A stretch of 64,000 nt of DNA from Bilabrum cf. latius (GCA_965178125.1 OZ237742.1:1054001-1118000), one strand, 5' to 3'; counted from the first letter of the stretch, positions 1 to 64,000 are shown. The notes: generated from the sequence alone by a model not told the origin. Program-made: numbers and translations.

Positions 1-1176
1 CGGCTGCGTAAGAAACTCGAAGAGCCCATGGCCGTGGAGGTGCGCGGGGACACTCTACAGTCCATCGGGGAGGTGCTGAAAGACGTCAGGGGGCTCGCCG
101 AGATCGAGGCCAGGCGATTCGCCTCCAAGCATGGTCTCCCTGCTGTGGCGGCTGCCAAGCCATACGAAGTGGGGCCCGCGAGCCAGTGCGCTGCGGGGCT
201 GATGCGGGCCGCGGAGTGCAACCTGAGGCGGCTGGTGGCCTCGAGGATCGACCCGCGGGCCGTGGGGATCCTGCTGCCGGGCGACAAGGGCGCGCCGGCG
301 CGAGGCACGCTGGGCGGGCTGCACGCGGCCCTGGATTCGTATGTGAAGAACGAGTCTGGGGAGCCGGCGGACGTCTTGCCGGAGCTTAGGTACGCCGCCG
401 CGAATGCCGTAGACGCTGGTCTGGAGGTGCTGTACCCCACCCCCGCGGAGCGTCGCAAGCTGGTGGCCGGTGTGCTGGGTGATGGCGCGACTCTGGAGCT
501 CCAGTTCGCCTTCCCCACCGTGAAGAAACCTCCCATGGCCCTGCCCGGGATGGAGGGACTGGCGGGGGAGGACGAGGACGAGGATGAGGACGACCTGGAT
601 GGAATCGCTTCCGCCGAGGCAGGCGAGCTGGAGGGCTGCCCCAAGAGCCGCATCCGGGCCATCCGTGACATTTCCAAGCGGGACGTGCGGTTCGACCGTG
701 CCATGATGCTGGCGCAGCTGGCAGCCGAGCAGAGGGGCTTCCGCACAGAGCTGGTGGGCAAGTGGGGCCAGTACCTGCACCTGCTGGTGGAGCTGCCCGC
801 GCCCAAGGACGGTACCGCAGCTGCGGCCGCCGGTGCCTCCGAAAGCAAGGAGCCTGCCGGTACCGGTAGCGACGCCGTGCAGTTCGTTTCGGAGGAGCTG
901 GGCGTGGTGTTCGAGAGGGCGGGCATGGGCGCGTGGCAGATCCCCAAGGGGTGCACCGAGCCGCGCATCCCCATGGAGATCAAGCGGTTCGCCGTGTTTG
1001 ACGGGGCCGACCGGAACTTTGAGCAGGCGGGACTGGGCTTCGTTAGGCTGTTCCCGGCGAGCGCTTGCTCCTTTGACAGGGCGCTGGCCGGCGTCTCAAG
1101 GTTTGTGGGAGGGGACGGCTCGGATCAGGCCGATGCTGGGGCGGGGTCGGGACCCGCATCGGGAGCCGGGGTGTGA
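1..1176 (+). CDS. Hypothetical protein, 3' part (5'-truncated by window edge)
   Basis: Frame is open from base 1 (RLRKKLEEPMAVE...) to TGA at 1174-1176, with strong G/C third positions and an acidic tract (EDEDEDEDD). No family recognised. Confidence 0.7.
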   Translation, partial: RLRKKLEEPMAVEVRGDTLQSIGEVLKDVRGLAEIEARRFASKHGLPAVAAAKPYEVGPASQCAAGLMRAAECNLRRLVASRIDPRAVGILLPGDKGAPARGTLGGLHAALDSYVKNESGEPADVLPELRYAAANAVDAGLEVLYPTPAERRKLVAGVLGDGATLELQFAFPTVKKPPMALPGMEGLAGEDEDEDEDDLDGIASAEAGELEGCPKSRIRAIRDISKRDVRFDRAMMLAQLAAEQRGFRTELVGKWGQYLHLLVELPAPKDGTAAAAAGASESKEPAGTGSDAVQFVSEELGVVFERAGMGAWQIPKGCTEPRIPMEIKRFAVFDGADRNFEQAGLGFVRLFPASACSFDRALAGVSRFVGGDGSDQADAGAGSGPASGAGV

Positions 1177-1381
1177 GCGTGTCTTGCTGCCTGTTGATTG
1201 GTCAAGAAAATCGCTGAAGAGAATCGCTGCTGGTTGCGCCGGTGCATGGTCATTCCCAAACTGGTGGGAAAGGAAATAAGATAGTACAGCGCCAGACAAT
1301 ACCTCCCGTACGAAGCCACGAGCTCATTTCATTACAGATTCAAATTCCAGCTTGTTGTCGGCCAGATTGTTAAACCCTCCC

Positions 1382-3535: not shown

Positions 3536-3751
3536 GTTGTGTGCCTTGCAGTGATCGAGTTGCAGGAAGCTTTCCGCGAAATGGGCGGGTAGCTCCGATC
3601 GTTTTACGATGCCTCAAACATGGCATGCGTGCGAACCGGCCTATTAATAGACCGAACAGGCCTGTAAGAGCGCAATAGGCACGCGTTGGCGTCGCAACAA
3701 GGTGTTAATTATCGTTTCTTTCGCTCCTGTCAGTCCAATCATACCGCAGCA
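3536..3751. promoter_or_regulatory. Probable short bidirectional promoter between divergent ankyrin/U-box and SCP2 genes
   Basis: 216 bp between divergent ATGs, AT-richer than the flanks, containing a palindromic cctattaatag core. Inferred from arrangement only. Confidence 0.4.
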
Positions 3752-4546
3752 ATGGCTCAGTTTTCTTCAGCCGATGCCGTGTTCGCGGCAATGACAGCTG
3801 GACTTGCTGCCGATCCCTCCATCAAGAAAAAGATCAAGGCAACCATATAGTATGTTGTTGATGGAAAGAAATGGTTTTTCTCGACGAAGCAGACTCCAGC
3901 CACCGGGTTTGGGTCTCCGTCGGGAAGAACTGATCTTACTGTTGAGATGTCTGGTGCAACCCTGCTGACTTTGGCAAATGGGAAGCAGAATCCGCAGCAG
4001 GCATTCATGAAGGGGAAAATCAAGCTCCGTGGCAACATGGGGATTGCAATGAAGCTTCAGACTGTGATCTCTGCAGCTCGCAAGTAGCTGGAGAGTGGCA
4101 ACGTGCCGACAACCGGAGCTGCTGCGGGGGGTGCTGCTAGCGGCGGCGCAGCATCTGGCGGCAGCGGTGGTGGCTTGTCCCTGCCGTCTGGGCTCCAGAG
4201 CAAGCCGTTCTTGCTCCAGATGGAGGAGGCTATCCGTAGCAAGGGCCCTGAGCTGCAGCGCAAGCTCAAGGGGGTGATCGTGTTCGAGCTCAAGAGCCCC
4301 GACGCGACCATGACCCTGGACCTCAAGTCGAGTTCTCCCTCTTTGTCCTCTGGTGCCCCCGCCGCGGGCACCAAGCGAGATCTCACGCTCACCCTCAAGG
4401 ACGCCGATTTCTGCGCCATGGGCAAGGGCACGCTCAACCCGCAGCAGGCCTTCATGAAGGGCCGCCTGAAGCTCAAGGGCAACATGGGCATGGCCATGAA
4501 GCTTGGGACCGTCATCAAGGCCGCGCAGTCCTCTGCAAAGCTGTGA
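3752..4546 (+). CDS. Tandem SCP2 (sterol carrier protein-2) domain protein with peroxisomal PTS1 (-AKL), 264 aa; TAG=Gln
   Basis: Two copies of the SCP2 motif NPQQAFMKG(K/R)(I/L)KL(R/K)GNMG(I/M)AMKL joined by a Gly/Ala linker. In-frame TAG at 3848 (KATI*YVV) and 4085; ends SAKL-TGA. Confidence 0.9.
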
Positions 4547-6850: not shown

Positions 6851-7164
6851 GTTTGCGCCGTCCACATCACTTGCGAGGGCGTTGACTCTAACTTCTGCCG
6901 ATGCTGAGCTCTACATTATGCTCCTCGCAAATGCTCTGCGTGGCTCATTGCGTTCTGTGAAAGCTCTAGTTGCTGCATGCAAAGGTGATGAAGATCGATC
7001 GAGCACCTGCAGCCTACCGTGCGGGTGACACAGACTCTGGACTGTATCAGCACTAACAAACAGATTAACCTTGCGTTTTGTCGGCTCTGGTTGACTTGGC
7101 TATCAGCTTAGAATCGCTGAAAGGGTGTTCAACAGCTCGGATCTTTCAATTGCTTGTCACCAGT

Positions 7165-9963
7165 ATGGTTTACTACGCCATGGCTACGGCAGTATCAATC
7201 GCGAGTGCATGTCATGCATCCGTATCATCCATTTCCGCATACAATCTGGCGTATACGCTCGAGATGACGTCCCCCCAAGCGGTGTACGAAGAGCAAGCTG
7301 CTGTTGCAGCCATATCTGGTCTAGCAAACCGTTTTGGTCCGCAGCTGTATACGTTCTACCTCGATGCAGATTCGTTTTGGTTTAATTATATGACGGCACC
7401 CCGGGGTTGGCTACATGGAGCTACGGTGCGCAACATATCGTCGGGGATTGGTGGAGTGGAGCTCCTAACGGAGCACTTGACCCAGCTTGCCGCCCACGGA
7501 TAGGCCAATTTCTCTGGGAGTGTGGCGCTATATGACCCTGCTATTTGGCCCTAGTCGCTCCTAGCAGGAACCGCGGCTGGCGCGGAAAACATGATTCCGA
7601 TTGCGTACCGTCCCGACGACCCGAGCAGCTTGTACAGCCGTCTGGTGGCATCTGCCTCCGGGCCGCAGCTTCCAGTCGGGTTGAATCTCACCGGAGCTTG
7701 TGACGGTAGCATTACTGGGTCAGTCAAGCTGGACTGCTACACGTGGGCGGTAGATCGCTGGCTGGCGCCGAACGCAACGCTGCCCGCGGACGGCCTGGTG
7801 CACGGCTACTTCATCGACTACTACTGGACGACAAAGGCCCACGTGCAGCCGCCGGGCCCGAACAGCGATAACGTCAAGAGTACCGTGACCAACCACGACT
7901 TCGTGGTGTCCCGGGGCGGTTTCTTCTGGGATCTGTCTCCCTGGGACGATGAGACGCCCGTGGATGACCCGAACCAGCCGCTGGGCAGCGACCTCAAGGC
8001 GCTCCGGATGATCCTCGATGCCTCCAACAAGCAGGCTGACGCGAGGAGCTTGCGGGCAGAGCAGGCCGCGGTTTCTTTGGTGCGGGCTAGCTTGGACGCA
8101 GGCGCCTCCAACGCGACTGTCTCGATCGGCAGCGCGCCCGCGGGCGTGAACGCAACGACCGTGCAGCCATTCGTGCACGTGTCTGGCTTTGTGCCATGGT
8201 ACATGAAGTACGTGGCCCCCAATGGCAAGCACCAGGGCGTTGCAACCGAATGGCAGACCATGCTGGTCGCGACGTCCTACAACACGTTCGTGGACGCAGA
8301 CGCGTGCTGCATCGGTGACATGGCCAACGCCGCATTTTTCCAGCACTACCCTGGCCCTGACCCTCGGCACAGGTTCGTGCCTCCGAAAACGCCTCTACCG
8401 CAGGACCTAGTAGATCGTGGGCTCCTCTAGGTGAAGGCGGAGGGTCCTGCCTCTGAGTTGGGCGGTGCTCGCCCCGGCAGTGCTGGGGTTGAAGACCAAC
8501 GGCGAGACGGGTTGCGGCTGCCCGGGTCAGGGTCTAGGCACCCATTGGACGGGGTCGGGGTGGCCCCTGGGAAGCTGTTTTATTTCTTTTACGCAGGAGA
8601 CTTCGACTCGGCTGCTTGGCTCTACTCGCAGCTGTACTCGAGGTGGAACGACCCAGCGAGAGGGTCGGTGCCGATCGCGTGGCCGCTTGACCCCGCCCTG
8701 GCAGTGCGGTTCCCGCCGGCATTCGATCTCGTCTTTTCGGATCTTCAAGGTCCGGTTTCGGACTGTGTGACGGACAGCACGTGCAACGACACCATCATCA
8801 CGGGAGACTCCGGTGCTGGCTACATATCCCCGCCGCAGCTGCAGGCAGACAAGCGCGCCCCATGGTCCGGGTATCCAGACGGTAGAGATCGCTGGGTGGA
8901 CTTTGCCGGCCCTTTGTACCGCCGGAACGGTGCCACGTACACTGGCTTCCTGATATCGGGGTCTGCAGGTGCCATGACCCCGGAGTCCGAGGAGCCCTAC
9001 ACGCGGCTGGCCCCCCACGGAATGGCAGACCAGGGATACCCCTCCATCCACCCTCACCTGGCCGAGGGGAGGTCCCCGGTTGTGCCTCAGTCGGACATCC
9101 ACGGAGACCCAGCCTCTGCGGCAAAGGACGGAGTGCTCCCGTTGCTGCCATCGAAACTCAGCGACCCGTCACAGTTCCACATGTTCCGATCGGTCCTGAC
9201 GAACCCTACATTCCTAAACCAAGTGGCGCGCAATGCGACGGCTCTCTCCCTTGGACTGGCAGAAGTGCTCTCCCCGATCGAGGTGGCCTTCCTGCAGCGA
9301 GTCGCTCTGGGGGCTCCCGAGCAGAATGATAATTTTGCGGCGTACATCAACGACACCCTGCCCTCCAGTGTTTCGGCTGCTGGCTTGAGCTCTTTGCCGG
9401 TGTCAGTAACTGTCAGAAACGACGGCTGGAATACGCTGGTAGCCCCATCCTCGTCGTTCCCAGAGGCTGACAAGCCCGGAGGGAATGGCAGCTGCGGCGG
9501 GCATCAAGCTGAGGGGCTTCAGAACGGATATGCAGTGGAGGTTAATGTGTCCACGGTGGTATCCATGCAGGAGCACCCGCTCCGGCAGGCAGGCTGTCAG
9601 GAAGCTGTGGCGCGAGCTGCCCGGGTGGGAAGAGGAGGAGGTGGCGGAGGTGGCGGCGGTGTGCTGCCCGTGTGCGGAGTGCAGGTGAGCGAGGGGTCTG
9701 TTGCCACGGGCACCATGGCCATGCTGCCGATTTCTCACTCAATTCGGCCCGGCGGCCAGGGAAGTGCGTCTGGCATGGTCCAGCTCCCGACGGGGCTCGC
9801 GCCGATCGCAGCCTCGCTGCAGAAGGCGGGGGGACACGCGTGGGTGCGGGTGTCGTACGGCGTGGTTGCCCTGGGGCAAGACGGGGCGGTGCTGTTGAGG
9901 TTTGCGGACAGGGGTGTGCTGCCATGGGTTCAGGACGTTCTAGTGTTGCCCTCAAAAGCATGA
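7165..9963 (+). CDS. Secreted GxGYxYP-family putative glycoside hydrolase-like protein (~932 aa); TAG=Gln
   Basis: Three track ORFs share one frame, joined by TAG at 7501, 7552 and 8428. Signal-peptide-like start MVYYAMATAVSIASACHAS. Motifs: YDPAIWP, NHDFVVSRGGFFWDLSPWDDETPVDDP, GFVPWYMKY, TEWQ, YAGDFDSAAWL, WNDPARGSVPIAW, GDSGAGYISP. Confidence 0.8.
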
Positions 9964-10087
9964 CGACATGGTCTGCCCGTAACCGGAACCCGGGGAGGGT
10001 TCGAGACGTTGATCACAAGAATTGAATTGTTGCTTTCTCGGCTAAATTTTTGATTAATTCTCCTAATTTGGGGTATCCGATATCAGT

Positions 10088-13000: not shown

Positions 13001-15364
13001 AGTGGCAGCCGTGACGCGGCTCCAGATCGTGTGCGCCACGATGACCTGGCAGGTGCACCTGCGCACGAGCCGAACGCATATGGAAGGACAGCATCGCTAC
13101 TCGATGGGTCGGGCAAGATTGCCATCGCGGGTGGGGAAGTGCAGCCAAATCCTGCAGGCGATCGGGCCAGAGATGCTGCTCACGATATAGCTGGCGAAGA
13201 AATGGACCCAGCCATTACTGCACTGCTCCACCAGCAGGCTCATGTTTCCACTGGCAACGAGAATCCATCTGATGCAGCGGATCCGAACACGGCCCGACCC
13301 ACAAGAAGGAAAAGACGGCAGATGTCTCCAAAGAATAGTAGCCATCCACATAACGTATTTCCAGTTGTGCCTACTGGTCACGCGCAGCTTCAGTCGCACA
13401 TTCGAGCGGTACGTGCTCCCGTTGGCAGCGAGGCTCTCACGGGGCTGCAGCTATCTGCAAACACCCACTCACGAGCGCATGCAGGGTCGATATCGCGCCA
13501 GAGGCCGCAATCAGCCGCCATCAGGAGACCTAAGCCAGCCAGGCACAACTCAGGAGTACCTCCGAGCCAGGCGCCACCGACAGCGATTGGAAGAGATGCC
13601 ATTTCGCATGGGGCGCACAGACGAAGTCGGCCGCAATCTGCACGATACGGAAGTGCATCTGGAAAGTTAGTTAATTGGGGGCACGGTGTTCAGGGCGAAA
13701 GCAGCGCGTTGTAGGCTCGTGCGACACAGCGCGTTTAGTTGCCGCCCTCACTCAGGGCAGAGCGCCCAGCTAGCTTTGTGCCTGCAAGTGGAGCCAGCTG
13801 TGGTCTATTAGTTGCCTCTACCGGTTTGCGTGGAGTTAATGGCCGTGCTAGTCCTACCAGTTCTCTCAAGACACCAAATAGAATTGTTTTAAGGCCAACG
13901 AGCGCGGTCGGCGCACGAGTCGCAGCAGCAGCACGTGGCTCCTCTGGCGTTGCGATACGCGCTCCAACCCGTGTTGTGCCGCAGTCTGATGTAGAGGAGA
14001 ATACTGCTCTGCCAATTTCAGAGAGCGAAAGGGCTGCAGTGACAATTCCTCCCTCGCTGGCTCCTTCTGCGGTGCAATCACCAGCCAGCACACCTTCTGG
14101 TGCAAGACACGAGGATACGTAGCGGTCGCCCAATGCATGGGCTGCATCAAGCCCTGGGATCGTTAGCCCCCACAGAAGTCGCGGCCAGCGAGATCCACGG
14201 AGGCGACCGGTTAGCGCTCAGCGAACCAGAGAAAGGAGGGTGGCAAGGGAGATGGTGAGGCAGGAGGCGCTCGCCTTGCCATCTGCTGGCAGCCCGGTCG
14301 GCCGCTATAATCAAAGGCTCGGATCAAGCGCCCGATCTATGGACCAACCAAGCTCTCCTCACCCACGAGCAGCCGGGAGTCTGGACAAGGGCTCTGCGGG
14401 CATTGGCTTGGAAACGAATGGGGAGAAACCATCCCAGACCGCCAGCAATCACTCTACGGCTCTAGTATAGAGGGTGGGGCTTGCCTCTTCCGGTCCGTCG
14501 AGTCCGAGCCCATTGCCGTGGAATGCAACGACGGGCACGAGTTCGAGGAAATCTCCGAGAAGGAAGGGTGGTCCTATGTCTGGTGTTGGTTTCTTGGTGA
14601 AAGGACGCGGAGAGACGGCGGGGCACCAGAGCGTGTCTGTGCTAGAGAGCAGAAGCAGAGCGCGCAATGCTGTACAATCTCCAGCCTAGCTTGCCCGCGG
14701 CATAAAGCAAGTAGGTGCCAAGCATATAGGATTTATATTCTAGGACGAAGGGCGCACAGAGGTCGACAGGGCGCATGAGATGCTGGGCGTCTTGCCTGGC
14801 TGGGCACAGCCACTGTCGCCACGAAGCAAAAGAGCGATGCGAGCTCGCAAGCGCGGCAAATTCGGAAACTCACACGAGAAGAGGGTCATCAGCCCTGCGG
14901 GAATTAGTCAAGCACCTTCAGGTGACCTGGTCAAAGCAGTCACGTTGCCTGCACGTGTGGGCGAACTACCGGGGCCTGACATTGGTATTGGCAGCAGGCT
15001 TGATCTAGGTACAGCGGAAGCCGTGGAGACCGAGGAGCCCGCGAAAAGAGATATTGTCCATGCAGAGATCGATACAAGCATGGACGTAGACCTCGAGGCA
15101 TGCGAGCAGGTTGCTAAAGGGAGTGATGGGGGCAGCCTTGTTGCAGTACAAGCGCAAGGTGCATCCAGCGACGGGCACAGGGAGCCAGCTGTCAAGCCAG
15201 CTCGCCAAACTGCTGCTCCACCTGCGCCAAGGCGGCCAGTGGCGCCGCCCCCCGACAGGTCTGCCTTGATCGAGGAACAAGTCCATTTGGTTGTAGGCCC
15301 TCAGGAGCCGCTCGTGAATAGGTCTCGCAACGTTTCGGCTAGCGGCTCTGAGCAAGCTTCATGA
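10088..15364 (+). CDS. Large low-complexity basic protein (~1,758 aa) with recurrent RPxSA motifs; TAG=Gln
   Basis: Track ORFs at 10115, 11072, 11963, 12341, 13739, 14240, 14474 and 14780 are all in one frame; the gaps read by hand contain only TAG; ends in TGA. Motifs RPASA, RPQSA, RPPSA, RPRSA, RPVSA, RPTSA and one FGKAPRF. Confidence 0.75.
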
Positions 15365-52300: not shown

Positions 52301-54636
52301 GTCTAATTCTGAGCCACAGAAAGCTCCGTTGCAGCAAGCGAATTCACCTCGGGTCCGGCCTCTTCGTCTGCATCTAATTCCATGAGCTGCTTCATGCGAG
52401 CTTCGAGAATCCTTCTGGCAGCACGTAATGCACCCATCTCCCGCTCACGATCTATTTCGGGGAGCGCACCTTTGGCATGACCGGCTCCAAATTGATCGCG
52501 CAGTGTTGTATCCTGCGCGAGGTTGCTAGAGGAGCTGGTCCTTCGGATGACAACACCGTTGCTGTCATGCCCCGTGTGGTGGGTCTAATGAGAGGAATAG
52601 CGGGCGCTTCCATGGCCGTCCTGCTGTTCGTCACAGCCTCGAATGGTGCTGGTGTGACCATGCAGATGCGTGCTGCTATGAGACCGACGGACGCCGATCG
52701 AGGAGGAGGAAGGGAGATCACTGGAATCGCGGCGAGCAGATGAATCCTACTCGCCCTTCTCCAGCCCGCCCTACGCATCCTGACGAGCCCCGCTCGGAGC
52801 AGCGCGATGGCTGTGGTCCTGAGAGCGCTGCGGCAGCAGCTCGCTAGCTCGCGGTGCGCCGTGCTGGTGGTACCGTCTGGCCGCAGCTGCAGCCCGCCGG
52901 TGAGACTCCTGCTGCATCTCATGCCTGCTTGATACGGATACAAGGCGCCTGGCTGTAGCGACGCAATCGTTGTGATCAAGTCTGGAGCCGCCCTCGCCCT
53001 CGCCCTCTGCCTTCTTTGCTAATGGAGACTCCCCGCCCGCGCTCGCCGACCGGAGCCTGACTCCTGCAGCGCCAGACCTATCAGATATGCTGGACACTAC
53101 CGCGTTCAACGCGGGCGCGTGAACAGGAGCAGGCAGCGATGAGTGTGGGCGTGCCAATGCTTCGTGCTCGCTGGCAGAGCTCGAGGCGGGTCTCGATTCC
53201 GCTGGGAAATCACCCGGTGTAGCACGCTGGGAGCCCGGCTGCGCACTTATCACTCGCTGCATGTCTGCTGGCATGTGCTCGCGGCTTCGGGATGACGGTA
53301 CCGCTGATTGGCTCCTCTTTCCACCATGCGTGTGCCGTTGGCGACGCAGCCTACGCCCCTGTCGCTTGTGCCGCTGATGCTGCCAACGCGTGTCTGCACC
53401 AACACCCTCTTGCAAACCTGAATGCGGGTGATTCTTGCGCAAAGCTAGCCGAAGTACGTCTTCTAATGCACTGCCTTTCTGGTGCTGATGATACTTGGGC
53501 TGCTTGTACGACACAGCTGGAATGACCCCGCCGCCTGGCGTCGGTCTCTTGGGAGACAGCGGCGACGGCGTGCCAGGCGCATGCTGAGTCGCGCGCGTAA
53601 CTGGTTGTGCGGATAACACCACTGAGCTGTGCGGGGTGGGGCCTCGAGACTGAGAACCTCCACCTGAGCTGGCACTGGCACTGGCAGTAGAGCTTGGTGC
53701 TAGTTGCAAGCTATCGCCACCTTCAGCTGTGTCGATGGGGAGCAGGCGCGGCGGAGAAGCCGCCCCCTGGTTCGACGGTGTGACCAATCCACCGGTGGAT
53801 GGGCTCCTGCTGGCTTCGCCCGGGATGAAGAGCGGGCTCCCCGAGGGCAGGCCGAGCCGTGCGGCAGCCAGATCGTCGGGAAGCGCTACCGCGCCCCACT
53901 GGCTGCCTCGCATGGCGGCTTCTTCTTCGCACCCTGGGGTATTACTGGGCATTAATGTTACGTGCTGCAGGCCGGCTGCGCCGCCGCTGCCGAACGGGGC
54001 GAGCCCTGCCACTGGCGGGCCTAGGTCGAAGCCCTCGTTCGCCGCGGCAAGCAAAGGCGAGTGAGCTCTGCTCGACTCATCCTGGGTCGTGGGCGATTGA
54101 TTGCCGGGATCCTAACCACCGGAATAACTTGCATCCGATGAGTCTGAGTCCGAATCATCTAGCTCGAGCCCAGTCTCCTCGATTTTGACAAGCACAACCT
54201 GCCCGAAGCTGCCCTGTCCAAGAACTCGAACAACGCCGTACTGCCCAGCGCAAATCGGGCAGCGGCAAGTATGGCGCTTCTCTGATAGTGTGTTACGGAT
54301 GTGTATGAATCCAACAGCCGCGAAACAACAGACAGTAACTACAAGCACAACTGTCAGGCCAGTCACTGGGACCTGCACCAAGAATACACCTAGATTGCCC
54401 GCGAGTGCCATTTGACCCTATTCAGCCTGCTAACACGCCTGGGAGCTACCAGCATAGTTTTGGACAGAATGAGCATCAGTCTTCTGTGCCTCGCGGCTTG
54501 GATGGAGAGTTCGGAGTGCTTCCTGAAGTGCCGTTTCGGCTTCTTTGCTTGTAGCGGATGCGGCTGCAAGGCCGAATCGAGGCGCTAGCAAGGAAGCTAG
54601 TACTACTGTTACAACAGCACACCTCACCATTGACAT
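49363..54636 (-). CDS. Signal-peptide + single-TM NEK-like Ser/Thr kinase with a split N-lobe (~1,757 aa); TAG=Gln
   Basis: Seven track ORFs share one frame, joined by TAG. Order: signal peptide, TM, CRCPIC, YGVVRVLGQGSFGQVVLVK (~54185-54240), then VVVKMV..EEARELRRLEHRHVV (~50830), CIVMEYC, HRDVKLEN, DFG, GTAPYKSPE, DVFALG, MLDPEPQKRPSA; ends in TGA. Confidence 0.8.
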
Positions 54637-54703
54637 GTGTCGGTCGAATCAATGGGATAACTTAACAATTTGTGTTTCAAAACCACGGATCGAACGTCGC
54701 TCG

Positions 54704-57700
54704 TCACATGCCGGCTGGATTGGCAGCCGCCGTTGGGTCGGGTTTGCGACGCGCGGCAACGGCCATTTCCTGCTCGTCTCTGCGAGCGCAAGCATCCTTG
54801 ACAGCAGCTGCTAGAACCGCCTTGGGGCCTGCTATTGCGAGCACCTCGGCGGCATCTGCAGCCTCAGGCATCCACGGCGGGAAAATCGGGCGGAACGCTC
54901 CAGACGACAGCATCCACACGGGCTGCGACACGACAGCCACTGCCCACCCCATCTGTCGCAGTCCCTGCACTCTCTGTAGAAACGAAGGCAGTCGTTCCCG
55001 ACAGAATGCCTCGCTTTTCTCAATGGTTGAAACCGCCTCCAGAATCTCCCTGTCGGTAAAGGCGTTGGCCGCTGTTGCGCCGCTACCGGCCCAAGCACTT
55101 GCCTCGATGCTCGCCCCATCAGCCGCATTTCTACCTGCACCGGTACTAACGGCCTCGTCTGGTCGAGACTCTGCACGCACCGCCCCGCGGATGACACTTT
55201 CGACTTGATCATTCTCTTCACGTTCGCCGTCGCCTCCGCCACCGCCACGTCTATCCGAATTTAGATCCAATCGGGTCCTGAATCCCGCGAGCAACTTGAG
55301 CTGGTCCAGAGGGCGAGGCGCCTCCTCCCTCCAGTCGGGCACGAGAATCGCAACGCGGGACCGCGGCAGGGCGAGGTCCACCCACAGGCCCTCCGCCAGC
55401 AGCACGTCCTGCAGCACCCGCTCCCCCTACTGTTCTTCTTCTTCTGCTCCTTCTTCTTGTTCGTCACCCACCGAGCTCGTTGTAGGTAGGCTTGCAGCTC
55501 CCGCGTCAGCATCTTTTGCACCATCGAAAGTATTGGCTAATGATCCAGCACTGACATTAATCCCATCACCCGCATCGAACCCGTCTTGGGTGTTCGGATC
55601 GATGAAATCACCAAACACCTCAGCCCACGCGGAAGCAACACCGCTCGGGACACCTCCACCCGAGCGTGTGCTGTTTGGCTCGATCCCAGCCGTATGCGAG
55701 CGCGGGCCAATCCATTTGTTCATATCGCCAGCTCTGCTGCCCTGCTGTATTTCCCAGCCCTGTGTTAGACCATCGACCGGGCACTGGGCCGCACCTTCGG
55801 CTCGGAGCAGGTCATCTGCGGATAAGTCTCCGCTCTCACCCAGCAGCACCACGGGCTAACCGCCCTCATTGCCGGCATTCATATTGCTTTGCAAGCCAAG
55901 CCCGGCACGCTCGGTGGGCCACGCGCCCCGCAAGATCGCTTCAAGTCGGCGGCGCGCCGCGGCTGGTGGTGTCCCTGCTGGCAAGCCAGTGGCAGCGGGC
56001 CCCGAAGAAGCCACCGCCATGGCTGCTAGATCCCTAGGATGCGACAGCCCCATGCGATTCGCAAGGGCCAGCAGCCCAGTATCAGCAGCACCGCAAACGG
56101 TACTGCCGCTGGGACTGCTCCTGCCGCTATCGATAGCATCGTCTTCCAGCACAAGGCAGTGAAGAGCCTCTGCGATCCCCCGCATGGTATCTGCTCTCAC
56201 GCGAGAATCGGGCGCGACGCACTGCTGCATGTCCCTCGGTGTCGTGACCCATGTCTTCCCGGTAGCGCCAACGACACCGCCGCTGCCCTCACACCCGGAG
56301 ACAGACCAGGCAATCGGTTGGCCGAGCACTGACAAGCCCGGGTCGTTCACCCGAAGGCTGCCCACGGGCGCCACTACCCTCGTTGCGCCGTCTGCAGAGC
56401 CGCCCTGCTCCTCCAGCATGCGCTTTGCGGAGAAACGGTGCTGCTGCAGACGCGCCCCCAGCCCGCCCACCGCCTCTGCGGCAGCAAAATGCGGCGCGTT
56501 TTCGCCCAGCAGCTGCAGGGCACCCCTCGCCCCCTCGTCACCTGAGAGCAGAACCCCGAGGAAGCCTGCGTGGACGCGGCGCAGCGTGACAGGGCTGGCC
56601 CTGGCCAGGTCTTTCAGCTGGGCGTTTCCGATGGCATCTGCGACTGCAAACAGCGAGTCGTGAGACCCGCGCAGCCAGCATCTCGAGGCTGCGAGCCCCG
56701 CGAGGCATGCGGCGAGATTCCCGAGAGACATGCCGCCTGCCATTTTTTCGTGCTGCTTTCGCTTGGCAGCCGGCATGGGCTTGCGGCCCGGCACCCGGCT
56801 GTCGCTCTGGCCCCACTCTTGGCTGCTGCTCTTCCCCGTGCTTTTGCGCTGCCTGCGAGCAGCGCGCACGCTCACTCGAAGCGCGTCATCTGCGGCTAGG
56901 GCAGCCGCCCCCCTGCCTCGCACCAGGATCTCGGCATCGAGCGCCCTCCATGCTGCCTCTACGTGCCTGTGCAACGAACGCGCGATCACAAGGCTGCCAG
57001 ATGCTCCTTCCGATCGGGTCTCGCTCTCCCGCTAGCTCCTTTGGGCCGAGGCCGACTTGGCAGCCGGTACTGCTGCCTCGACAGAAGGCAGCTCGCACGG
57101 TCTGTCAATCGTTGAAAGGGCAAGAGCCGCTTTCCCGAGGGAAGCGTGGGTCAGGTGGGGCACCCACTGGGGGATCGCATCGATCAATCGGGCCCTCAGC
57201 TTGGGCAGCTGGATGGGACACAAGAGGACTGCCTCCAGCAAAGCCACCCCTGTGTCTGGGCTCAGCCGCTTGACCTCGCCTGCGCTTTGTGCCAAGAACA
57301 TCTCGAGAGACACGATCGCATCCAGCTCCCGGCTGACCTGCTGCGACAGGAAGAAGCCGGGGGAGGAATCATCCGTGCCTGCGATGTATTCTTCTGTGCC
57401 GCTCTTCCCGCCGACTCCGCGGTCAAGTCCTGAGACGGTGACCGGAGACACCAGCATGCCACTTCGAATCAGCTCGAGGGCCCGCGACTCGGTAAAGGCG
57501 CCGTGCTGCCGCATGCCCTGCACCAGTGCCACGGCAAGCGTAGCGCTTGCTTCGGGTGGGGGTCCTCGCTTGCTTGCCGATCCACTGCCACGGCTGTCTT
57601 CAAAGCAGTCTAGAGCGACATCGACTAGCGCGGGGCAGGCGAGACCAGCCTGCTTCACTGCCAGCAAGGCGTGGCTAGCCTGCGCTAGTGTGAGCCTGTC

Positions 57701-59431
57701 GCGGGACCCGGAGCTAGATTGCCTTGCCGTCTTGTCGCCGTTCGATGGTCGACCGGCGACAGCACTGCCGTGCTCCGCGATAGAATGCATGCGTCTCTGC
57801 AGCCGACTGATGCACGCGCTCAGTGCACTCAGCCACTGCACCGACTATGTCCTCTTCACTCTCACGGCTGCTTCATCGCTGCCGGCATCGCTAGAGGCCA
57901 TGCCCGCGGGTTTCTTCCTCTCCCTCTGCAGCCGCTTCTCTCTCATTGACTGCTCCCACGACCGACCCAGGTCACGCACCACTGCCCTCTCGCCCATCCC
58001 CTCGCACAGCCCGATGACAAGCCGACACAGGGTGTTTGCATCTGGGTGCACCTCAGGCAGGCCCTTTACTAGATCCAAGGAATCCAGGACTAGGGCGGCT
58101 CCATCCTGCTCTGCTAGCCCGACCCTTCCCAGTGCCTGCAGGCACTGCAGTGCGCCCACCCACGGCCAGTCAGGAATCGTGCGAGGCGCGCCTTCACACA
58201 AAGATGTTGCACTCCCTGTGGCGGACCTAAATTCCAGCTGCATGGCTTGCCCGAACCGACCCACCACCTGCCGCACCATGGCCTTACGCTGGGACTCTGG
58301 CAGCGCCGTAGGTGCCACTGCCGCGGCATACGCCACGTGCCCCAGCTGGTTCATGTCTAGCTCAGTCAAGCGGCGGAGAGCACCCTGATGATTGACCTAC
58401 GACGATTCATATGACAGCACCCCGCCCGGGGGCGATCCGCCCTCGGGGGTATTCCCCCCGGCGGGCTGTGGCACCACCCCAAGCGAACTGAGCAGCCTCG
58501 CAAATGCACCCCCCCTGGCCCCCCTGGCCGTGCTTGCCAGCCACAGTGCACGTGCCGCCTGGGATGGAGTCAGGAGACCGCGTTCTGCGGCTCGTGCGGT
58601 CACGTTGAGGTTCTACTGCAGGGTGCCTGGGAGCAGGACATTCCGGAAGGTTCGCTGGGACAGCTCAACTGTGCAGGCGAGGTGCTTCGCTGCCAGCAGG
58701 CCGATCCCTGGTACCAGCGGGCTCTTGGGAGGCAGACCTGGCTTAGAGGCCGTATAAGCCTCCGTAGGATTAGAACGGGATGCATCGCTTGCTCGTGTTG
58801 ATCCATCTGCGCCCGTGGCTCTGGTGCTCGGCTCCTGCTCAGCTGCTGGTTCAGACGCTGCGTCCATGCGTGCCTGCAGCTGCTGGCCAAGTCCACTGAC
58901 GGCAGCAGCAAGCTGTCGCACGAGATCACGACGAGTACTTAAGTCTATTTGCACGCGATTGATTGACCTGGTGAGCCGGCGAATGTGCCCTGACAGCTTG
59001 CAGCAAGTGTCGACGGGCAGCCTGTGTCGGCCAGTACCCTTTATTGCATTGCAAGCAAGCTGAACAGAGCTGCATAGGTCACCAAGCAAACGATTCTGTT
59101 TTAAACGAACCAGCTTGTTTCGCTAAGGGGAGCTAGCGGACGGCCCCTATTGCGCGGACGATACTGCCGCCTCCAATTGGTCTCCGAGCAACTGCAACCG
59201 CTGCAGCACCTTTGCAGCTTGCGGTCCATGCCGCCGCCCCCCTCTTGCATGCACTGTTGTCCCCGAGCTTCTACGAATCTGGTGCGTATTGGAAGCCCCG
59301 CTGCTTTGGCAATGATGCACAGTCCGAAAGCAGCAGCGGCAAGCTTTAGATGCCACGACACGGTACATTTGAAGCCACACGCGAGGCCCCGTTTGAGGTA
59401 GGCGAGGTGCTAACCTTAAAAAGTGCTGCAT
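54704..59431 (-). CDS. Putative mitochondrial helical-repeat protein with C-terminal RAP domain (FASTK/OPR-RAP-like, ~1,575 aa); TAG=Gln
   Basis: Eight track ORFs share one frame, joined by TAG. Arg-rich, acid-free N-terminus MQHFLRLAPRLPQ; helical repeats (LDMNQLGHVAYAAA, MSLGNLAACLAGLA); RAP-like EGLWVDLALPRSRVAILV...GLRQMGWAVAVVSQPVW. Confidence 0.65.
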
Positions 59432-59734
59432 TGTACAATTTGAGAGCGATACACTGCAATATGACCGCAAACATGCCCAAAATGCTTTTTCGCATGCACC
59501 GCATTGGTGTGCTCCGGTAGTGCTCCAGCGGTTGCTTGCAATCCTGAAGCATGGCAGCCGCTGCAGGTGATGGAAAGCCTAAGGCAGTGATTGTGAGATT
59601 ATAATCTACGGTCTGCTTGGTATTTACGCTGCTTTATGCCCTTGACGCTCTCCAATATCGCACCATTGACGAGCTTGTTGCTGAAACGCCATTGGTTGGT
59701 GTGGCACACGAATTGCAATCTCACCCTCTCAACT

Positions 59735-60832
59735 ATGGGCACTGTTCTTGTTCCCGTGCAGACTTCAGCAGCTGGAGACGAAGTCACAGCTTTTTCTAAG
59801 GATGAGTTCCTCGCTATGTTCAAGGGGATCTCCGACGAGCTAACGACCGGCACCATGCCGGCGTACGAAATGCCTAAGGATGCTGTTGAATGGGTGTAGC
59901 GCGCATTAGATTACACCGTCCCTGGCGGCAAGCTGAACCGTGGCATGACGGTAGTGCACACGCTGCAGGCCATCAAGGGCAAGGAGGCGACGGCCGAGGA
60001 GATCCGGCAGGCAGGCCTGCTCGGCTGGATGGTGGAATGGTTGCAGGCGTTCTTCCTGATCGCAGATGATGTTATGGATTCCAGCGTGACGCGTCGCGGC
60101 AAGCCTTGCTGGTATCGCCAGGAGGAGGTCGGCATGATCGCCATCAACGATGCGTTCATCGTGCAGAGCCACATCTACATTCTGCTCAAGAAGCACTTCA
60201 GATCCCACCCGCAGTACGCCCTGCTTTTGGAGCTCTTCACGGAGACCACTTGGCAGACCGAGATGGGCCAGCTGATCGACCTGATCACGTGCCCCCCTCA
60301 CTCAGACAAGGTGGACCTCTCCCGCTTCACCGCGGAGAGGCACCACCTCATCGTCAAGTACAAGACGGCTTTCTATTCATTCTACCTGCCTGTGGCCCTG
60401 GGCCTCGTGGTGGCGGGCAAAGCCTCGGACGAGAGCCTGGAGGCCATCCGGCCCATCCTGCTGGACATGGGGGAGTACTTCCAGGTGCAGGACGATTACC
60501 TGGACTGCTTCGGGGATCCCAAGGTGATCGGCAAGGTGGGCACGGACATTCAGGACAACAAGTGTTCCTGGCTCGTGGTGCAGGCCAAGGAGCTTGCCAA
60601 CGAGGAACAGAAGGAGCTGCTGCAAGGCAGCTACGGCCGGAACGACCCCAAGTGCATCGAGGCCGTCAAGGCGCTCTACGCAGACATGGGACTTGTGGGC
60701 GTCTACGAGAAGTACGAGGCCGAGTGCCACGAGCGCATCACAGGCGCCATCAAGAAGGCTGGGGAGGAGGGGAAGGTGCCCCCGCAGGTGTTCGAGCTGC
60801 TGCTCGCAAAGATCTTCAAGCGGTCCAAGTGA
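59735..60832 (+). CDS. FPPS: Farnesyl diphosphate synthase (365 aa); one in-frame TAG
   Basis: EWV[TAG 59897]RALDYTVPGGKLNRG, FFLIADDVMD, RRGKPCW, GQLID, YKTAFYSF, FQVQDDYLD, GKVGTDIQDNKCSW, KIFKRSK-TGA. Confidence 0.96.
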
Positions 60833-61376: not shown

Positions 61377-62195
61377 TCAAGCGGGACATGACTACAAGTA
61401 CGAATTGAAGTCGAATTTCTCGGGCTCCTTGTTGAAGGTCCTGACCAGCTTTGGCTCCTTGAGGTAGTAGTGGGAGAGCAGCCAGAGCAGCCGCCTCGCT
61501 TCGTCCTTCGTCAGGTGCGCGCTGAAATCTCCACGCACCAGCACCAGCCCTTTCTTGTCCTGGAAATCCTCGTGAAAAGCCACTGCCATGTAGGGCTCCG
61601 CGTTGTTCGGGTCCTTCCTGTAGTCTTCCAAGTAGGTGAAGATGCAGTAGTTATCCTGGAACTGGCTCAGAACCGTAAAGAACTTCCCGTCCCCCTTCTG
61701 CACGGGAAACACAAAGTATGGAAACTTCTTTGCCTCAGCTTTCCAGCCTTTCCAGGTCTCCGTATCGACTACCATACCACAGGCATCTCGTCGTTCGATA
61801 TGGTGCTTCTTCCAGATCTCGAAGATTTGTTCAGGCGGCTCCCGCTCGAGCAACGCGTACTTAATAATTTGCTCCAATCGCCTGGGCGCAGGAAACGAAA
61901 AGCCAGGCATGTACTTCGCGCCCTACGTAATGTACGGGTGAGCCCTATTGGTCTTGATGCTCGGCTAGGGGTTCTCCATCACTGTGGCACTGCTCCCTCC
62001 AGAAGCAGAGCCACTCGATTCAGAGCTAACGAACGGTGTGCTGTGCACTGAACGCGCAAGCAACGTGTGCGTGCCGCCACTTGTTGGCACGATCGGGGTT
62101 GCGGATGCAGCAACTGACTACAGCGAGGCAAAGACGGGCAGCTGGCGCAGCTGCGGCCTACACAAGCTAGATTGTCGCAATAATCGCCCAAGCAT
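61377..62195 (-). CDS. ATP11: Mitochondrial F1-ATPase assembly factor ATP11 (272 aa); TAG=Gln
   Basis: Transit-peptide-like MLGRLLRQSSLCRPQLR; PRRLEQIIKYALL, IFEIWKKHH, FPYFVFPV, FTYLEDYR, KGLVLVRGD, VRTFNKEPEKFDF. Reading TAG as sense extends both ends; stops at TGA 61377. Confidence 0.88.
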
Positions 62196-62292
62196 ATCCC
62201 TAGGAACGCAAATCTGCAGCAAGTATGGCGCAGTATGCGGTTTTGATGGTTTGCCTGCATTCTTCCGGTTTTTTGTCCAGCCGTTGCGACCA

Positions 62293-64000
62293 ATGCGGGC
62301 GACCTCGAACCCTGGTTTCTGCGTCCAGTAGCCGCTCTCAAGAGCGGTGATACGAATGTAGTATGATTCCTCCGAAGAAACATTTCCACATGGTAACCTG
62401 GAGGAAGACTCTGGGAGGGGTATCCTTGCGTACTCCGCTGCCAGGCAGCTTCGCGAGCAGGCCAAGCGAGACTGGGTGCGCGGGGCGATGAACCGTGTGT
62501 TTACTTTGGTCGGATAGGGAAGAGCTATTGATCAGGAGCAGGATTTTCTTCGATTTTTCCTCTGCTGTGTCACAATACTATCCGTGGTGATGACTGCCAG
62601 TGAAACCCTCGTCAGGATGCACGACGCCAGGTCAACTCTATGCCCAGAGCTCGCCGCAGACCCAGCCTCCCCAGGCAACGCGTCCGTCGCTGTACTTGAG
62701 TCCGAGTGTGATAGTCGCGTGAGCGGCGTGCAGTGGTGGTGGCCGTCGGCAGAAGTGCCGATGCACGAGCTGCTCAGGGTTGCGTTTGCGGTAGAAGTGC
62801 TCTTCACGGTAGTTGCGCTGATCGAGTACGCCTTGCGAATATGGTCCAGCCCAGTACTGTTTGATAGTAGATTCGACATTTCTGCAAACCGCGCGGCGCT
62901 GCTCTCGGCGACGCACCTTAAGCGCTGGTGCAAGTGCTACGACATGCGGTGGTGGTGCGCTCTGCGGTGCTCCAAGTGGTGCGGCCCGTGGTGCTCGGTC
63001 CGCTGGTTCGCGCCCGTTTCATGGAACGAACTGGTCCGACCCGGCGCCTTCGTCGCGCTGTCTCCGCCGCAGACGAGCCTTCTGATCAAGTCGGAGGCGG
63101 AGCGGCTCATCACCGAGGGGGCCGGCCTGCCAGTGGGTGAGTATGACGAGAGCCTTCAAGTTGGGGCAGGGGGTCCCGGGATCGGGATCGGGGACAAGGC
63201 GGCCGGGTCGTCCACGACCACCCGCCCGATTGCTATCCCCAGCAGGAGTGTGACGAGTGGGAGGCGCCGGGACTCCCATCTCGGCCCGGAGGCGCGGAGG
63301 GCGCTGGTGGCCCAGATCACCGGAGTGAAGGATGAAGATAGCGACGGAACTGGCAGCGAGTCTGAGCGGAACCGCGGGGGGTCCATCAGCGGCGGCGGAG
63401 GGAACAATCCCAGCAGCCGGTCGGAGTGGGTGGTGGTCGAGGCCAAGGAGAAGGCGAGCGGGAGCAGCCTGGCGCGTCTCAGGGGCCAGGAGCAGGTTCT
63501 CCACAGGGGGGCGGCTCCGAGTCCCGTGCAGAGAGCCGTTGAGATGGCGACCGCGGCGAGGATCCAGGAGGCCTTGCAGAGGGCGGGGGACCGGACCGGT
63601 GGCGGTGTGACGAGTGCGAGGCGCGCCCCTGGGCTGTCTCGGGAGGGCTCGAGGAGGCGCTCCACGATGCCTCCCAAGCAAGGGGGCGCTCTGCTGGGCT
63701 CTGGTGGCTCTGGCGGCGGTGCGGGGGCGGGCGGCCAGGGTGCCTCAAGTGGGCGGGGCGGTGCTGTGGGCAGGGGTTCCAGGCTGCAGGCGGGCACGGG
63801 GTCCCAGGAGGAGCTTACTGGGGAGGTGCGGGAGGCGGCTGCGGCTGCTGCTGCGGGGACTGCGGCGAGCGGCGGCAGCAGCAGCGCCACGACGGCGAAT
63901 CCGCTGCTGGGTCGATCGGCCAGCGATGGGCACCGCGGCGATGGAACACATCGAGGCGGTAACGACCCCTGGAACGAGGTCCCCGCTTTGACCAGTGGAC
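62293..64000 (+). CDS. Probable voltage-gated ion-channel-type protein, 5' part (S1-S2 then long low-complexity loop); 3'-truncated; start 62293 or 62356
   Basis: Not in the ORF track because it runs off the window. Frame 1 is open to 64000 apart from TAG. S1-like FLRFFLCCVTILSVVMTASETL and S2-like AVEVLFTVVALIEYALRIWS. Confidence 0.6.

Follow-up and report, generated by a model that had tools for sequence, protein, structure and literature searches.

UAG is probably a regular sense codon for glutamine in the DNA described here, while UGA, which does most of the terminating, and UAA are kept as stops, as in NCBI table 15, and we hold this reading jointly with the view that the sequence is nuclear DNA of a GC-rich, intron-poor eukaryote. 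The window, by which we mean the whole stretch that was analysed, comprises 64,000 nt of Bilabrum cf. latius (GCA_965178125.1 OZ237742.1:1054001-1118000) with a GC content of ~59% (range 55-63%). The original prediction, that TAG is a sense codon, is now backed by frame lengths, by conserved genes that carry the codon, by spliced transcript-like contigs that keep it and by a relative with a like feature, and every TAG coordinate that the prediction named reads back as claimed.

Reading frames, stop codons and gene ends

With all three standard stops in force, the longest stretch between two stops anywhere in the window measures 544 aa. Once TAG counts as sense, six far longer frames appear (3103, 2974, 3076, 1765, 1761 and 1639 aa), whereas the control readings yield either no ORF of at least 600 aa across the window (TAA as Q) or five, of 610-883 aa (TGA as W). 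Three of the new frames, each ~9 kb long and encoding the paralogues A, B and C (Table 1), hold 36, 30 and 35 TAGs, contain neither TAA nor TGA, and close with TGA; dozens of TAG in the absence of the other two stops are far beyond chance. In-frame TAG also occurs in recognizable families, namely FPPS, DUF4419, ATP11, SCP2, GxGYxYP and five kinases, and lineage-specific genes carry it as well. The conserved genes singled out earlier (FPPS at 59897, SCP2 at 3848 and 4085, ATP11, DUF4419 and the kinases) do carry it, and the Pfam match that identifies SCP2 (E 7e-39) covers both of its TAGs. The two splices observed, 169 and 97 nt long, are consistent with the predicted introns of ~100 nt.

Across 13 frames and 18,298 in-frame codons we count 161 TAG, no TAA and no TGA, the frames being mostly counted stop-to-stop, such that a few 5'-proximal TAGs among the 161 may precede the true start codon. 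The two TAGs of SCP2 come on top of these 161. The two other frames of the same 13 genes contain 79 and 70 TAA, 261 and 391 TGA, and 214 and 177 TAG; thus TAG is not avoided in frame, unlike the absent TAA and TGA. The 13 frames end in TGA (12) or TAA (1) and never in TAG, and SCP2 adds one further TGA, so that TAG is needed as a terminator at 0 of 14 gene ends, a sample small enough for rare dual use to escape it. TGA closes each of the four genes whose ends are fixed by homology or by a C-terminal signal (FPPS, ATP11, DUF4419 and SCP2), and in FPPS it follows immediately after the conserved C-terminus. With none in frame in those 18,298 codons, UAA and UGA are not sense codons in the window. 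TAG makes up ~17% (161/938) of the putative glutamine codons, and its share is lower where conservation is strongest than in fast-evolving genes (TAG/Gln codons 1/16 in FPPS, 0/11 in the U-box gene and 36/169 in paralogue A).

Table 1. Genes, introns and aligned TAG columns in the window
Feature	Position	Strand	Description
Tandem double SCP2 protein	3668..4546	+	TAG 3848 and 4085; ends ..AKL then TGA
GxGYxYP-family frame	7069..9963	+	3 TAG, TGA end
Low-complexity frame	10067..15364	+	1765 codons; 17 TAG, including RP[TAG]SA at 11930
Paralogue A	15565..24876	-	3103-codon intronless frame, split protein kinase domain; 36 TAG, TGA end
Paralogue B	25232..34156	-	2974-codon frame; 30 TAG, TGA end
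DUF4419 gene	35218..36693	+	6 TAG, 5 within domain; TGA end
Paralogue C	36823..46053	-	3076-codon frame; 35 TAG, TGA end
AGC-like protein kinase frame	46628..48694	-	4 TAG, TAA end
AGC-like kinase intron	near 48634-48731	-	97 nt, GT..AG
Kinase frame	49363..54648	-	1761 codons; 11 TAG, TGA end
Frame of no known family	54704..59623	-	1639 codons; 10 TAG, TGA end
FPPS exon 1	59551..59592	+	ATG at 59551, 14 codons
FPPS intron	59593..59761	+	169 nt, GTGAG..CAG; skipped in run X7 contig
FPPS exon 2	59762..60832	+	polyprenyl_synt E 6e-79; TAG 59897-59899 (AVEWV[TAG]RALDY)
ATP11 (mitochondrial F1-ATPase assembly factor family)	61377..62195	-	4 TAG, TGA end
TAG/CAG/TAG column (A/B/C)	22450-22452 / 31523-31525 / 43597-43599	-	12 flanking columns same in all three
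CAG/TAG/CAG column (A/B/C)	17095-17097 / 26528-26530 / 38176-38178	-	B TAG = B2543; Q in relative P0157
CAA/CAA/TAG column (A/B/C)	24285 / 33520 / 45577-45579	-	paralogue alignment
TAG in A facing CAG in B	A 21642, B 30754	-	paralogue alignment
Shared TAG column A2626/C2658	16999..17001 (A), 38080-38082 (C)	-	Q in P0155, P0156, P0157

Two readings would remove either the translation of TAG or its separation from TAA, and we consider both most improbable. If UAA and UAG both encoded glutamine, as in table 6, TAA might be merely scarce through high GC; coupled changes of this sort are by far the commonest kind (excerpts of PMC5304391), and TAA closes just one frame, that of the AGC-like kinase, whose end is without a homology anchor. 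Nonetheless, judging by how often CAR, GAR and AAR end in A rather than G, 62-89 in-frame TAAs would be expected were TAA sense, and none is seen (P <=1e-27), even though TAA occurs freely off-frame and reading it as Q opens no long frame. The claim that TAG was reassigned without TAA thus holds, a single frame ending in TAA included. Alternatively, the TAGs might not be translated at all, being assembly or C-to-T errors, marks of pseudogenes, sites edited back to CAG or residents of hidden introns. TAG does differ from CAG by a single transition, and the runs that we compared with the window are all contigs, in which rare variants drop out, those of X1 possibly coming from the window's own source. 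Against this stand the spread of 161 sites over 13 frames, conserved enzymes included, with TAA and TGA at zero, and the letter-for-letter agreement of contigs from three further runs of other studies: in all four runs, of which X6 covers 20 of 30 bins, no differing letter is listed. Two of them, X5 and X7, are putatively RNA, as judged from splice-like joints and contig shapes, X5 having also been flagged as 'probably DNA'. An X7 contig joins 59592 to 59762 (GT..AG) and runs on through the FPPS TAG, and X5 has a CT..AC joint from 48633 to 48731 as well as gene-sized contigs at 48613-54661 and 54655-58764, with the 1761-codon kinase frame spanned end to end by a single contig; none of these contains a differing letter. 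Splicing out or editing of TAG had been a concern from the outset, and the spliced transcript-like contigs retain it unchanged. An independent relative, moreover, has different TAG sites within an orthologous frame, and the standard-code protein fragments P0141 and P0142 break at the TAGs 110, 318 and 491 of paralogue A. The in-frame TAGs are thus not an artefact, nor are they spliced out or edited, the RNA nature of the runs being our own reading of them.

The amino acid read at UAG

The paralogues bear on what TAG encodes. All the reciprocal columns reported earlier are present (Table 1), with TAG facing CAG or CAA in either direction, and TAG also joins glutamine runs, as in CAG CAG CAG TAG in paralogue C (39330-39319), or forms a run of three in paralogue B (33710-33718). 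In the low-complexity frame, three RPQSA motifs match RP[TAG]SA. When the A, B and C alignments are decoded with BLOSUM scores, a method that assigns 51 of 61 ordinary codons correctly, Q ranks first at all four stringencies (Q 50, E 24 and S 10 at threshold 0.4, n=46). Decoding by empirical likelihood likewise places Q first at each of four thresholds, by a margin of 4-12 lnL over the second-ranked residue, and neither L nor S ever enters the top six. The glutamine codons that face TAG are CAG in 14 cases and CAA in 6, and the resulting CAG share of 70% matches its 70% usage. The hydropathy around TAG (-0.34 +/- 0.08) is like that around Q, E, K, R and H and unlike that around L or V (-0.09). 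A naive-Bayes classifier of sequence context, which also placed Q first, was dropped because it assigned just 16 of 61 codons correctly and misplaced CAG and CAA; the hydropathy summary was retained.

Close relatives add to this picture. The FPPS TAG faces CAG in the syntenic relative L001, with flanking residues identical at 12 of 12 positions, and P0019, a 98% identical relative known from protein alone, has Q at the same site. In ATP11, one TAG faces CAG in L001 and another, well-conserved TAG faces GGC. The TAG column shared by paralogues A and C (A2626/C2658) is Q in the proteins of all three relatives compared. In such close comparisons TAG acts much like a synonym of CAG and CAA.

Decoding from distant homologues over 16 TAG columns ranks E first (7.1), followed by R (-2.0), Q (-3.3) and L (-3.5). 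In controls with masked codons, the true glutamine codon CAA (11 columns) gives E 7.7 and Q -0.2, CAG at n=16 decodes as Q in 266 of 300 draws, the L score of true leucine codons is ~+25 in every one of 300 draws, and the S score of true serine codons lies between +4 and +9, S being outside the top eight for TAG. Since CAA also decodes as E, this result neither supports nor refutes glutamine over glutamate; the same alignments exclude leucine, serine, lysine and histidine. The homologues of DUF4419 are just 26-37% identical, and their TAG columns are mixed.

Consider, then, a code in which UAG specifies glutamate and UAA and UGA stay stops, as has been reported for UAG in one uncultured oligohymenophorean ciliate. 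Such a code would account for the E-first ranking by distant homologues, for the GAA that faces TAG in two well-conserved paralogue columns, for the E that solved structures carry at the FPPS and SCP2 TAG columns, and for the GAG in the window that faces one TAG of L001. We nevertheless regard it as unlikely: in the paralogue likelihood E trails Q by 7.6-27 lnL, close orthologues or relatives carry CAG or Q at four separate conserved TAG columns, and the distant-homologue test decodes a true glutamine codon as E as well. Partner codons argue in the same direction, for while CAG and CAA track their usage, GAG, the commonest glutamate codon and the one a single step from TAG, accounts for 1 of the 10 glutamate partners, with GAA at 9, as against a GAG usage of 64% (P=6e-4). 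Slightly less likely still is some other meaning, whether Leu (the case of the rhizarian exLh) or Ser (that of Scotinosphaera), or ambiguous decoding by more than one tRNA. Several TAG columns are indeed hydrophobic: solved MRCK kinases have a conserved Leu opposite the kinase TAG at ~48506-48508 (L in 73 and M in 30 of 154 kinase rows), all 15 homologues of DUF4419 show V, I, L or C at one of its TAGs, two relatives have L at A2662, and the A2626/C2658 column is L, V or I in kinases generally. Hydrophobic residues dominate 4 of the 16 distant-homologue columns, two of these being the same kinase position. The three close relatives, however, carry Q rather than L at A2626/C2658. A leucine code of the exLh type would also have to contend with a score of -3.5 where masked Leu codons give ~+25, with the 0 of 16 paralogue pairs that have L as the partner of TAG at threshold 0.6, and with the polar context of TAG; a serine code of the Scotinosphaera type fails in that S is in neither the top six nor the top eight. 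Scatter is moreover expected for glutamine: in Iotanema, as in the window, TAG sites lie chiefly at weakly conserved columns, and just 23% of UAG sites are dominated by Gln (excerpts of PMC5304391). Recoding of the pyrrolysine or selenocysteine type is ruled out by the frequency of ~9 TAG per 1000 codons, by the Gln-like partners and by the eukaryotic genome. The prediction that TAG means glutamine is therefore upheld by both paralogue decodings and the four conserved columns, with a few columns disagreeing. Of the question whether homologous columns favour another residue, the part concerning Leu and Ser is settled by their exclusion and the paralogues favour Q, while the distant columns rank E first, as they do for true CAA. 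Glutamine is thus most likely, the best-supported if not proven meaning of TAG on these comparisons.

Relatives, placement and known codes

UAG as a sense codon is shared, on the evidence of orthologous sequences, with relatives of the window organism. L001 has the same gene order (nucleotide identity 81% in FPPS and 78% in ATP11), its FPPS and ATP11 both terminate with TGA, and its orthologue of the 1639-codon frame is a 1321-codon frame with 11 TAGs. P0143, which is 91% identical to paralogue A, stops one residue short of A's TAG 1251. A search for shorter relatives of paralogue A returned 14 proteins (2 self-fragments, 1 relative fragment whose end falls just ahead of a TAG, and 11 unrelated kinases), none of which spans any TAG site of A. 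In a tree of 36 FPPS sequences, hand-picked from 120 listed matches as the named ones and the closest others and including no ciliate, a long-stemmed clade with 100/100 support unites the window with P0019 and L001 and falls among marine sequences on the diatom/eustigmatophyte side (support 87-94), and no named close relative of this clade is among the 36. The genome-contig and viral-contig collections scanned contain no near relatives of the window FPPS.

UAA and UAG nearly always change together in nuclear codes, and few lineages split them (excerpts of PMC11687900 and PMC5304391). The original prediction gave Iotanema and some ciliates as examples of UAG-only Gln codes; this list was incomplete, for PMC11687900, as excerpted, also records UAG-only changes to Gln in Protocruzia and two phyllopharyngean lineages, to Ser in Scotinosphaera and to Leu in a rhizarian. 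Iotanema spirale (Fornicata) reads UAG as Gln and keeps UAA and UGA as stops, and the window resembles it in that TAG is the sole reassigned stop, is inferred to be Gln and is not seen as a terminator, in the window at 0 of 14 gene ends; the terminators themselves differ, with 104 UAA against 15 UGA in Iotanema and TGA at 13 of 14 ends in the window (excerpts of PMC5304391). The window is also set apart by its ~59% GC and by encoding ATP11. Fornicate mitochondrion-related organelles are not known to have the mitochondrial F1-ATPase complex, so a fornicate origin of the window is very unlikely.

Protocruzia tuzeti and the two phyllopharyngean lineages have the identical codon table, with UAG alone read as Gln (excerpts of PMC11687900). 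The window differs from these ciliates in being a 64-kb multi-gene contig of 55-63% GC with GT..AG introns of 97 and 169 nt and exons of 9 kb. Ciliate macronuclear DNA is generally AT-rich, and phyllopharyngean chromosomes are generally gene-sized. In exLh UAG means Leu and in Scotinosphaera Ser; both are non-ciliate UAG-only changes that likewise keep UAA and UGA as stops, but the amino acid differs. In the excerpted description of exLh, UAG lies at conserved Leu positions, where the TAG of the window is found in a few columns only. UAR=Gln (NCBI table 6) occurs in many ciliates, some ulvophytes, hexamitid diplomonads, oxymonads and an aphelid. These codes share with the window the step from stop to Gln, presumably via a mutated tRNA-Gln anticodon, whereas TAA in the window is not sense. 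Genetic code 15, with TAG as Gln, is also used by crAss-like and other gut phages (excerpts of PMC9523058), whose suppressor tRNAs are described there as acting late in infection; the window, in contrast, encodes a mitochondrial assembly factor along with eukaryotic kinases, and its introns are spliceosomal.

The type of code is already known, and the lineage appears new. We found no report in the literature of a change of UAG alone to Gln in a GC-rich non-ciliate lineage, and the supplementary tables of PMC5304391 and PMC11687900, of which excerpts were used, may list more. It is possible, and we propose it tentatively, that the window represents an independent and unreported origin of UAG-only reassignment to Gln in a GC-rich, aerobic, non-ciliate protist clade of at least 2-3 species-level lineages that terminates mainly with TGA and uses TAG for ~17% of its Gln codons.

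Decoding and wider meaning

By analogy with other stop-to-Gln codes, the tRNA-Gln expected to read UAG would carry a CUA anticodon, which a single base separates from the CUG isoacceptor, and the expected partner change would be an eRF1 blind to UAG but still recognizing UAA and UGA. Within the 64-kb window ARAGORN found no tRNA genes, Rfam gave no matches, and no eRF1 gene is present. If the origin is indeed independent, the capture of UAG alone at high GC would be hard to square with codon disappearance under AT pressure. An ambiguous-intermediate route would then be favoured, combining a CUG-to-CUA mutation of tRNA-Gln with an eRF1 able to distinguish between UAG and UAA. Each split of UAA from UAG is a natural experiment on eRF1 discrimination and the fixation of suppressor tRNAs, and this one has a setting unlike that of the published cases considered here: GC-rich DNA, mainly TGA ends, long intronless genes and heavy use of TAG. 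Because relatives have the code too, its timing and mechanism are open to comparative study. In the meantime, annotation under the standard code fragments genes, so that the gene catalogues and metagenome bins of this clade will be wrong until table 15 is used; the database proteins P0141 to P0143 are fragments of exactly this kind.

TAG as a sense codon

In the window, whose GC content is 55-63%, the standard stops leave a longest stop-to-stop frame of 544 aa and 19 frames of at least 300 aa. When TAG alone is read as sense, the three frames of the paralogous kinase genes A, B and C open (see table), together with frames of 1765, 1761 and 1639 aa; the equivalent control with TAA yields no frame of at least 600 aa, and that with TGA five, of 610-883 aa. 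As the original prediction had it, A, B and C are ~9-kb frames containing no TAA or TGA, and all coordinates quoted there were correct on being read back. Over 13 frames (18,298 codons, taken mostly from stop to stop, such that a few 5'-end TAGs may lie upstream of the true start codon) there are 161 TAG, 0 TAA and 0 TGA in frame, as against TAG 214/177, TAA 79/70 and TGA 261/391 in the other two phases. TAG thus occurs in frame as often as in the other phases; TAA and TGA are strictly excluded.

Features of the window; lengths of A, B and C are with TAG alone read as sense
Feature	Coordinates	Strand	Remarks
U-box gene	1382-2794	-	0 TAG
SCP2 gene	3668-4546	+	two SCP2 domains in tandem
724-codon frame	4928-7102	-	no family match
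GxGYxYP gene	7069-9963	+	putative glycoside hydrolase
Paralogue A	15565-24876	-	3103 aa; 36 TAG; ends TGA
Paralogue B	25232-34156	-	2974 aa; 30 TAG; ends TGA
DUF4419 gene	35218-36693	+	
Paralogue C	36823-46053	-	3076 aa; 35 TAG; ends TGA
AGC-like kinase	46628-48694	-	TAG at ~48506-48508
Large unknown gene	54704-59623		

The conserved genes named in the original prediction as carrying in-frame TAG are borne out by family matches: TAG-containing frames match FPPS (polyprenyl_synt, E 6e-79), DUF4419 (E 1e-67), SCP2 (E 7e-39) and ATP11 (E 6e-29), as well as GxGYxYP and two more kinases beyond A, B and C.

Contigs of four public sequencing runs, compared with the window over 46100-64000, list no differing letters. 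Run X1 holds the whole interval in one contig with neither intron-like skip, and may be the window's own source. In runs X5 and X7 the contigs are gene-sized, very unevenly covered and interrupted between genes, and one contig of each run shows a canonical intron-like skip. The skip from 59592 to 59762 (GT..AG, 169 nt) places a first exon of 14 codons (ATG 59551) directly before the main exon of FPPS, and that from 48633 to 48731 (CT..AC) corresponds to a 97-nt minus-strand intron. The FPPS-splice contig of X7 continues across the TAG at 59897 without a differing letter, and X5 contigs match the window over 48613-54661 and 54655-58764, again with 0 differences. Since spliced contigs keep TAG, removal by splicing or editing, which the original prediction had set as a test against itself, does not appear to occur, provided that these contigs are transcripts, as their splices suggest (the run records have no RNA label, and X5 is rated 'probably DNA'). 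Two proteins in the database (P0141 and P0142) are exact fragments of A lying between its TAGs at codons 110, 318 and 491, the effect of standard-code gene calling, which cuts genes of this genome at TAG. Overall, we regard it as virtually certain that TAG is a sense codon.

The amino acid at TAG

Glutamine, the residue originally proposed, is favoured by close comparisons. When A, B and C are aligned codon by codon and candidate residues are scored with BLOSUM62 against those opposite TAG, Q ranks first at 4 of 4 stringencies (Q 50, E 24, S 10 for 46 pairs at local identity of at least 0.4); with ordinary codons, the same decoding is correct as top choice for 51/61 and within the top three for 57/61. 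A second decoding, in which each residue's partner distribution is learned from the same alignment, again places Q on top at 4/4 thresholds, 4.2-12.3 lnL above the runner-up (H or K) and 7.6-27 lnL above E; L and S are never among the top six, and at threshold 0.6 none of the 16 pairs has L as partner. The reciprocal columns read back as claimed. The best-conserved columns of the alignment are TAG/CAG/TAG, CAG/TAG/CAG, CAA/CAA/TAG and CAA/TAG/CAG. TAG also prolongs one CAG run, makes one run of three and takes the place of Q once among the four RP-Q-SA motifs, as had been noted. Averaged over four residues to each side of TAG, hydropathy (-0.34 +/- 0.08) is like that around Q (-0.31), E, K, R and H, and unlike that around L (-0.09) or V (-0.08).

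Relatives agree at several sites. The FPPS TAG is CAG in L001, a metagenome contig of a relative, with 12/12 flanking residues identical, and Q in P0019, a 98% identical FPPS protein from another assembly; translation of P0019 with table 15 is unlikely, since in that collection the genes of this organism are cut at TAG. One ATP11 TAG is CAG in L001 (flank identity 0.8) and another is GGC, Gly (0.92). With the kinase C-lobe of C as query, relatives' fragments 57-72% identical were found, in which a column with TAG in both A and C is Q in three proteins (P0155, P0156, P0157) and a TAG of B is Q in P0157; the remaining TAG columns hold L, K/N, S/T, V/I or A/C.

The main competitor is glutamate. 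Two other conserved columns of the paralogues read TAG/GAA/GAA and TAG/GAA/TAG, and adding up 16 TAG columns (FPPS, DUF4419 and five kinase domains) in the manner of Codetta puts E first (E 7.1, R -2.0, Q -3.3, L -3.5). In a control with each test codon masked to X before alignment (n=16), the correct residue scores +12 to +26 for genuine Leu, Lys, Thr, His and Glu codons and +4 to +9 for Ser codons, and with CAG 266 of 300 draws return Q. CAA, the less used Gln codon, gives nearly the TAG profile over 11 columns (E 7.7, K 3.4, R 1.4, Q -0.2), and distant homologues at this sample size therefore cannot part Gln from Glu. They do rule out Leu, Lys, Ser, His and Thr. Of the residues whose enrichment the original prediction had named as adverse, Leu is excluded here and Glu ranks first, as it does for CAA. 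The outcome fits Iotanema, in which Gln-dominated columns held just 23% of the UAG sites and just 19.5% of the canonical Gln codons (PMC5304391). Partner codons over all aligned paralogue pairs bear on the same choice: CAG:CAA is 14:6, or 70% CAG, matching usage (70%), and GAG:GAA is 1:9 against 64% GAG usage (P=6e-4). By these counts, the Gln partners look synonymous, and those with Glu resemble normal Q/E substitutions.

A few columns are at odds with Gln. The TAG of the AGC-like kinase aligns with a conserved Leu of solved MRCK kinases, four residues past the alpha-C glutamate (L 73, M 30 in 154 kinase rows), which we take to be a regulatory-spine position; read as Gln, it would give this kinase an atypical core residue. 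One DUF4419 TAG is V, I, L or C in 15/15 homologues, the TAG at A2662 (codon 2662 of A) is L in two relatives, and the ATP11 TAG opposite Gly in L001 belongs here too. These columns are too few to overturn Gln, and are compatible with an unusual residue at individual sites or with a degree of ambiguous decoding. We consider Gln quite probable.

Stop codons, relatives and known codes

The claim that TAG alone was reassigned holds up well. A-ending to G-ending ratios of CAR, GAR and AAR (0.39-0.56) predict 62-89 in-frame TAA if that codon were sense, and 0 are observed (P of 1e-27 or less). Frames end in TGA in 12 of 13 cases and in TAA in one; TGA directly follows the C-terminal AKL of SCP2 and lies at or near the C-termini of homologues in FPPS, ATP11 and DUF4419. 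No end among 14 genes requires TAG, a sample compatible with occasional dual use. The reassignment is very probably TAG-only, and the joint reading of TAG as sense, alone and Gln is likely.

L001 (6683 bp) shares the window's gene order, with nucleotide identities of 81% in FPPS and 78% in ATP11, both of which end in TGA; its orthologue of the large unknown gene has 1321 codons with 11 TAG. P0143, 91% identical to A, terminates exactly one residue ahead of A's TAG at codon 1251. The feature thus belongs to a small clade rather than to a single assembly.

Earlier reports describe nuclear UAG=Gln in Iotanema, Protocruzia tuzeti and two phyllopharyngean lineages, UAG=Leu in one rhizarian and some phyllopharyngeans, UAG=Ser in Scotinosphaera, and UAG=Glu together with UAA=Lys in one ciliate (PMC11687900, PMC5304391). 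The code table itself is thus already known. Relative to the UAG-only cases as described there, the window differs in its GC-rich DNA, TGA as main terminator, long intronless genes and a TAG share of 17% of Gln codons; a search of article full texts found no report fitting this lineage. By analogy with other stop-to-Gln lineages, a tRNA-Gln(CUA) would read UAG and eRF1 would be blind to it.

Organism and gene content

GT..AG introns, eukaryotic kinases, mitochondrial ATP11 and peroxisomal-type SCP2 mark this as nuclear DNA of an aerobic eukaryote. In a 37-row FPPS tree, the window groups with P0019 and L001 in a clade (100/100) whose stem is long (0.57). This clade falls on the side that also holds diatoms, eustigmatophytes and unnamed marine sequences (support 87-94), away from the opisthokonts and the sole green alga and with no named close relative among the rows; one gene is insufficient to place the organism.

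Genes A, B and C stand in tandem on one strand (15565-46053), apparently intronless, with the DUF4419 gene on the opposite strand between B and C. Their ~3000-aa products are paralogues (35-36% mutual identity overall), in each of which a long insert, several hundred residues in length, interrupts the kinase domain. Segments at their N-termini and in their central parts are hydrophobic, and outside the kinase domain there is no Pfam match. Despite the low overall identity, the three proteins have long identical blocks in common, for example near alignment column 974, pointing to local gene conversion or strong constraint.

In SCP2, a Gly/Ala/Ser linker joins the two sterol-transfer domains, and the terminal AKL is a peroxisomal-targeting-like tripeptide. 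The 724-codon frame has 4-5 tandem ~10-residue Gly/Glu/Ser/Gln/Ala-rich units near its C-terminal third. Antisense to the U-box gene lie spurious long open frames (1280-2767 and 1374-2825, both plus strand); as GC-rich genes carry such frames, ORF length alone is a poor gene criterion here. L001 (1-6683) and the window (54704-62531) have the large unknown gene, FPPS and ATP11 in the same order, and protein identity is 89% for FPPS, 70% for ATP11 and 36% for the large gene, which thus evolves very fast. GxGYxYP and DUF4419 are patchily distributed families, the best DUF4419 match (38% identity) having a EukProt label starting 'Phypoly', and both genes are possible lateral acquisitions.
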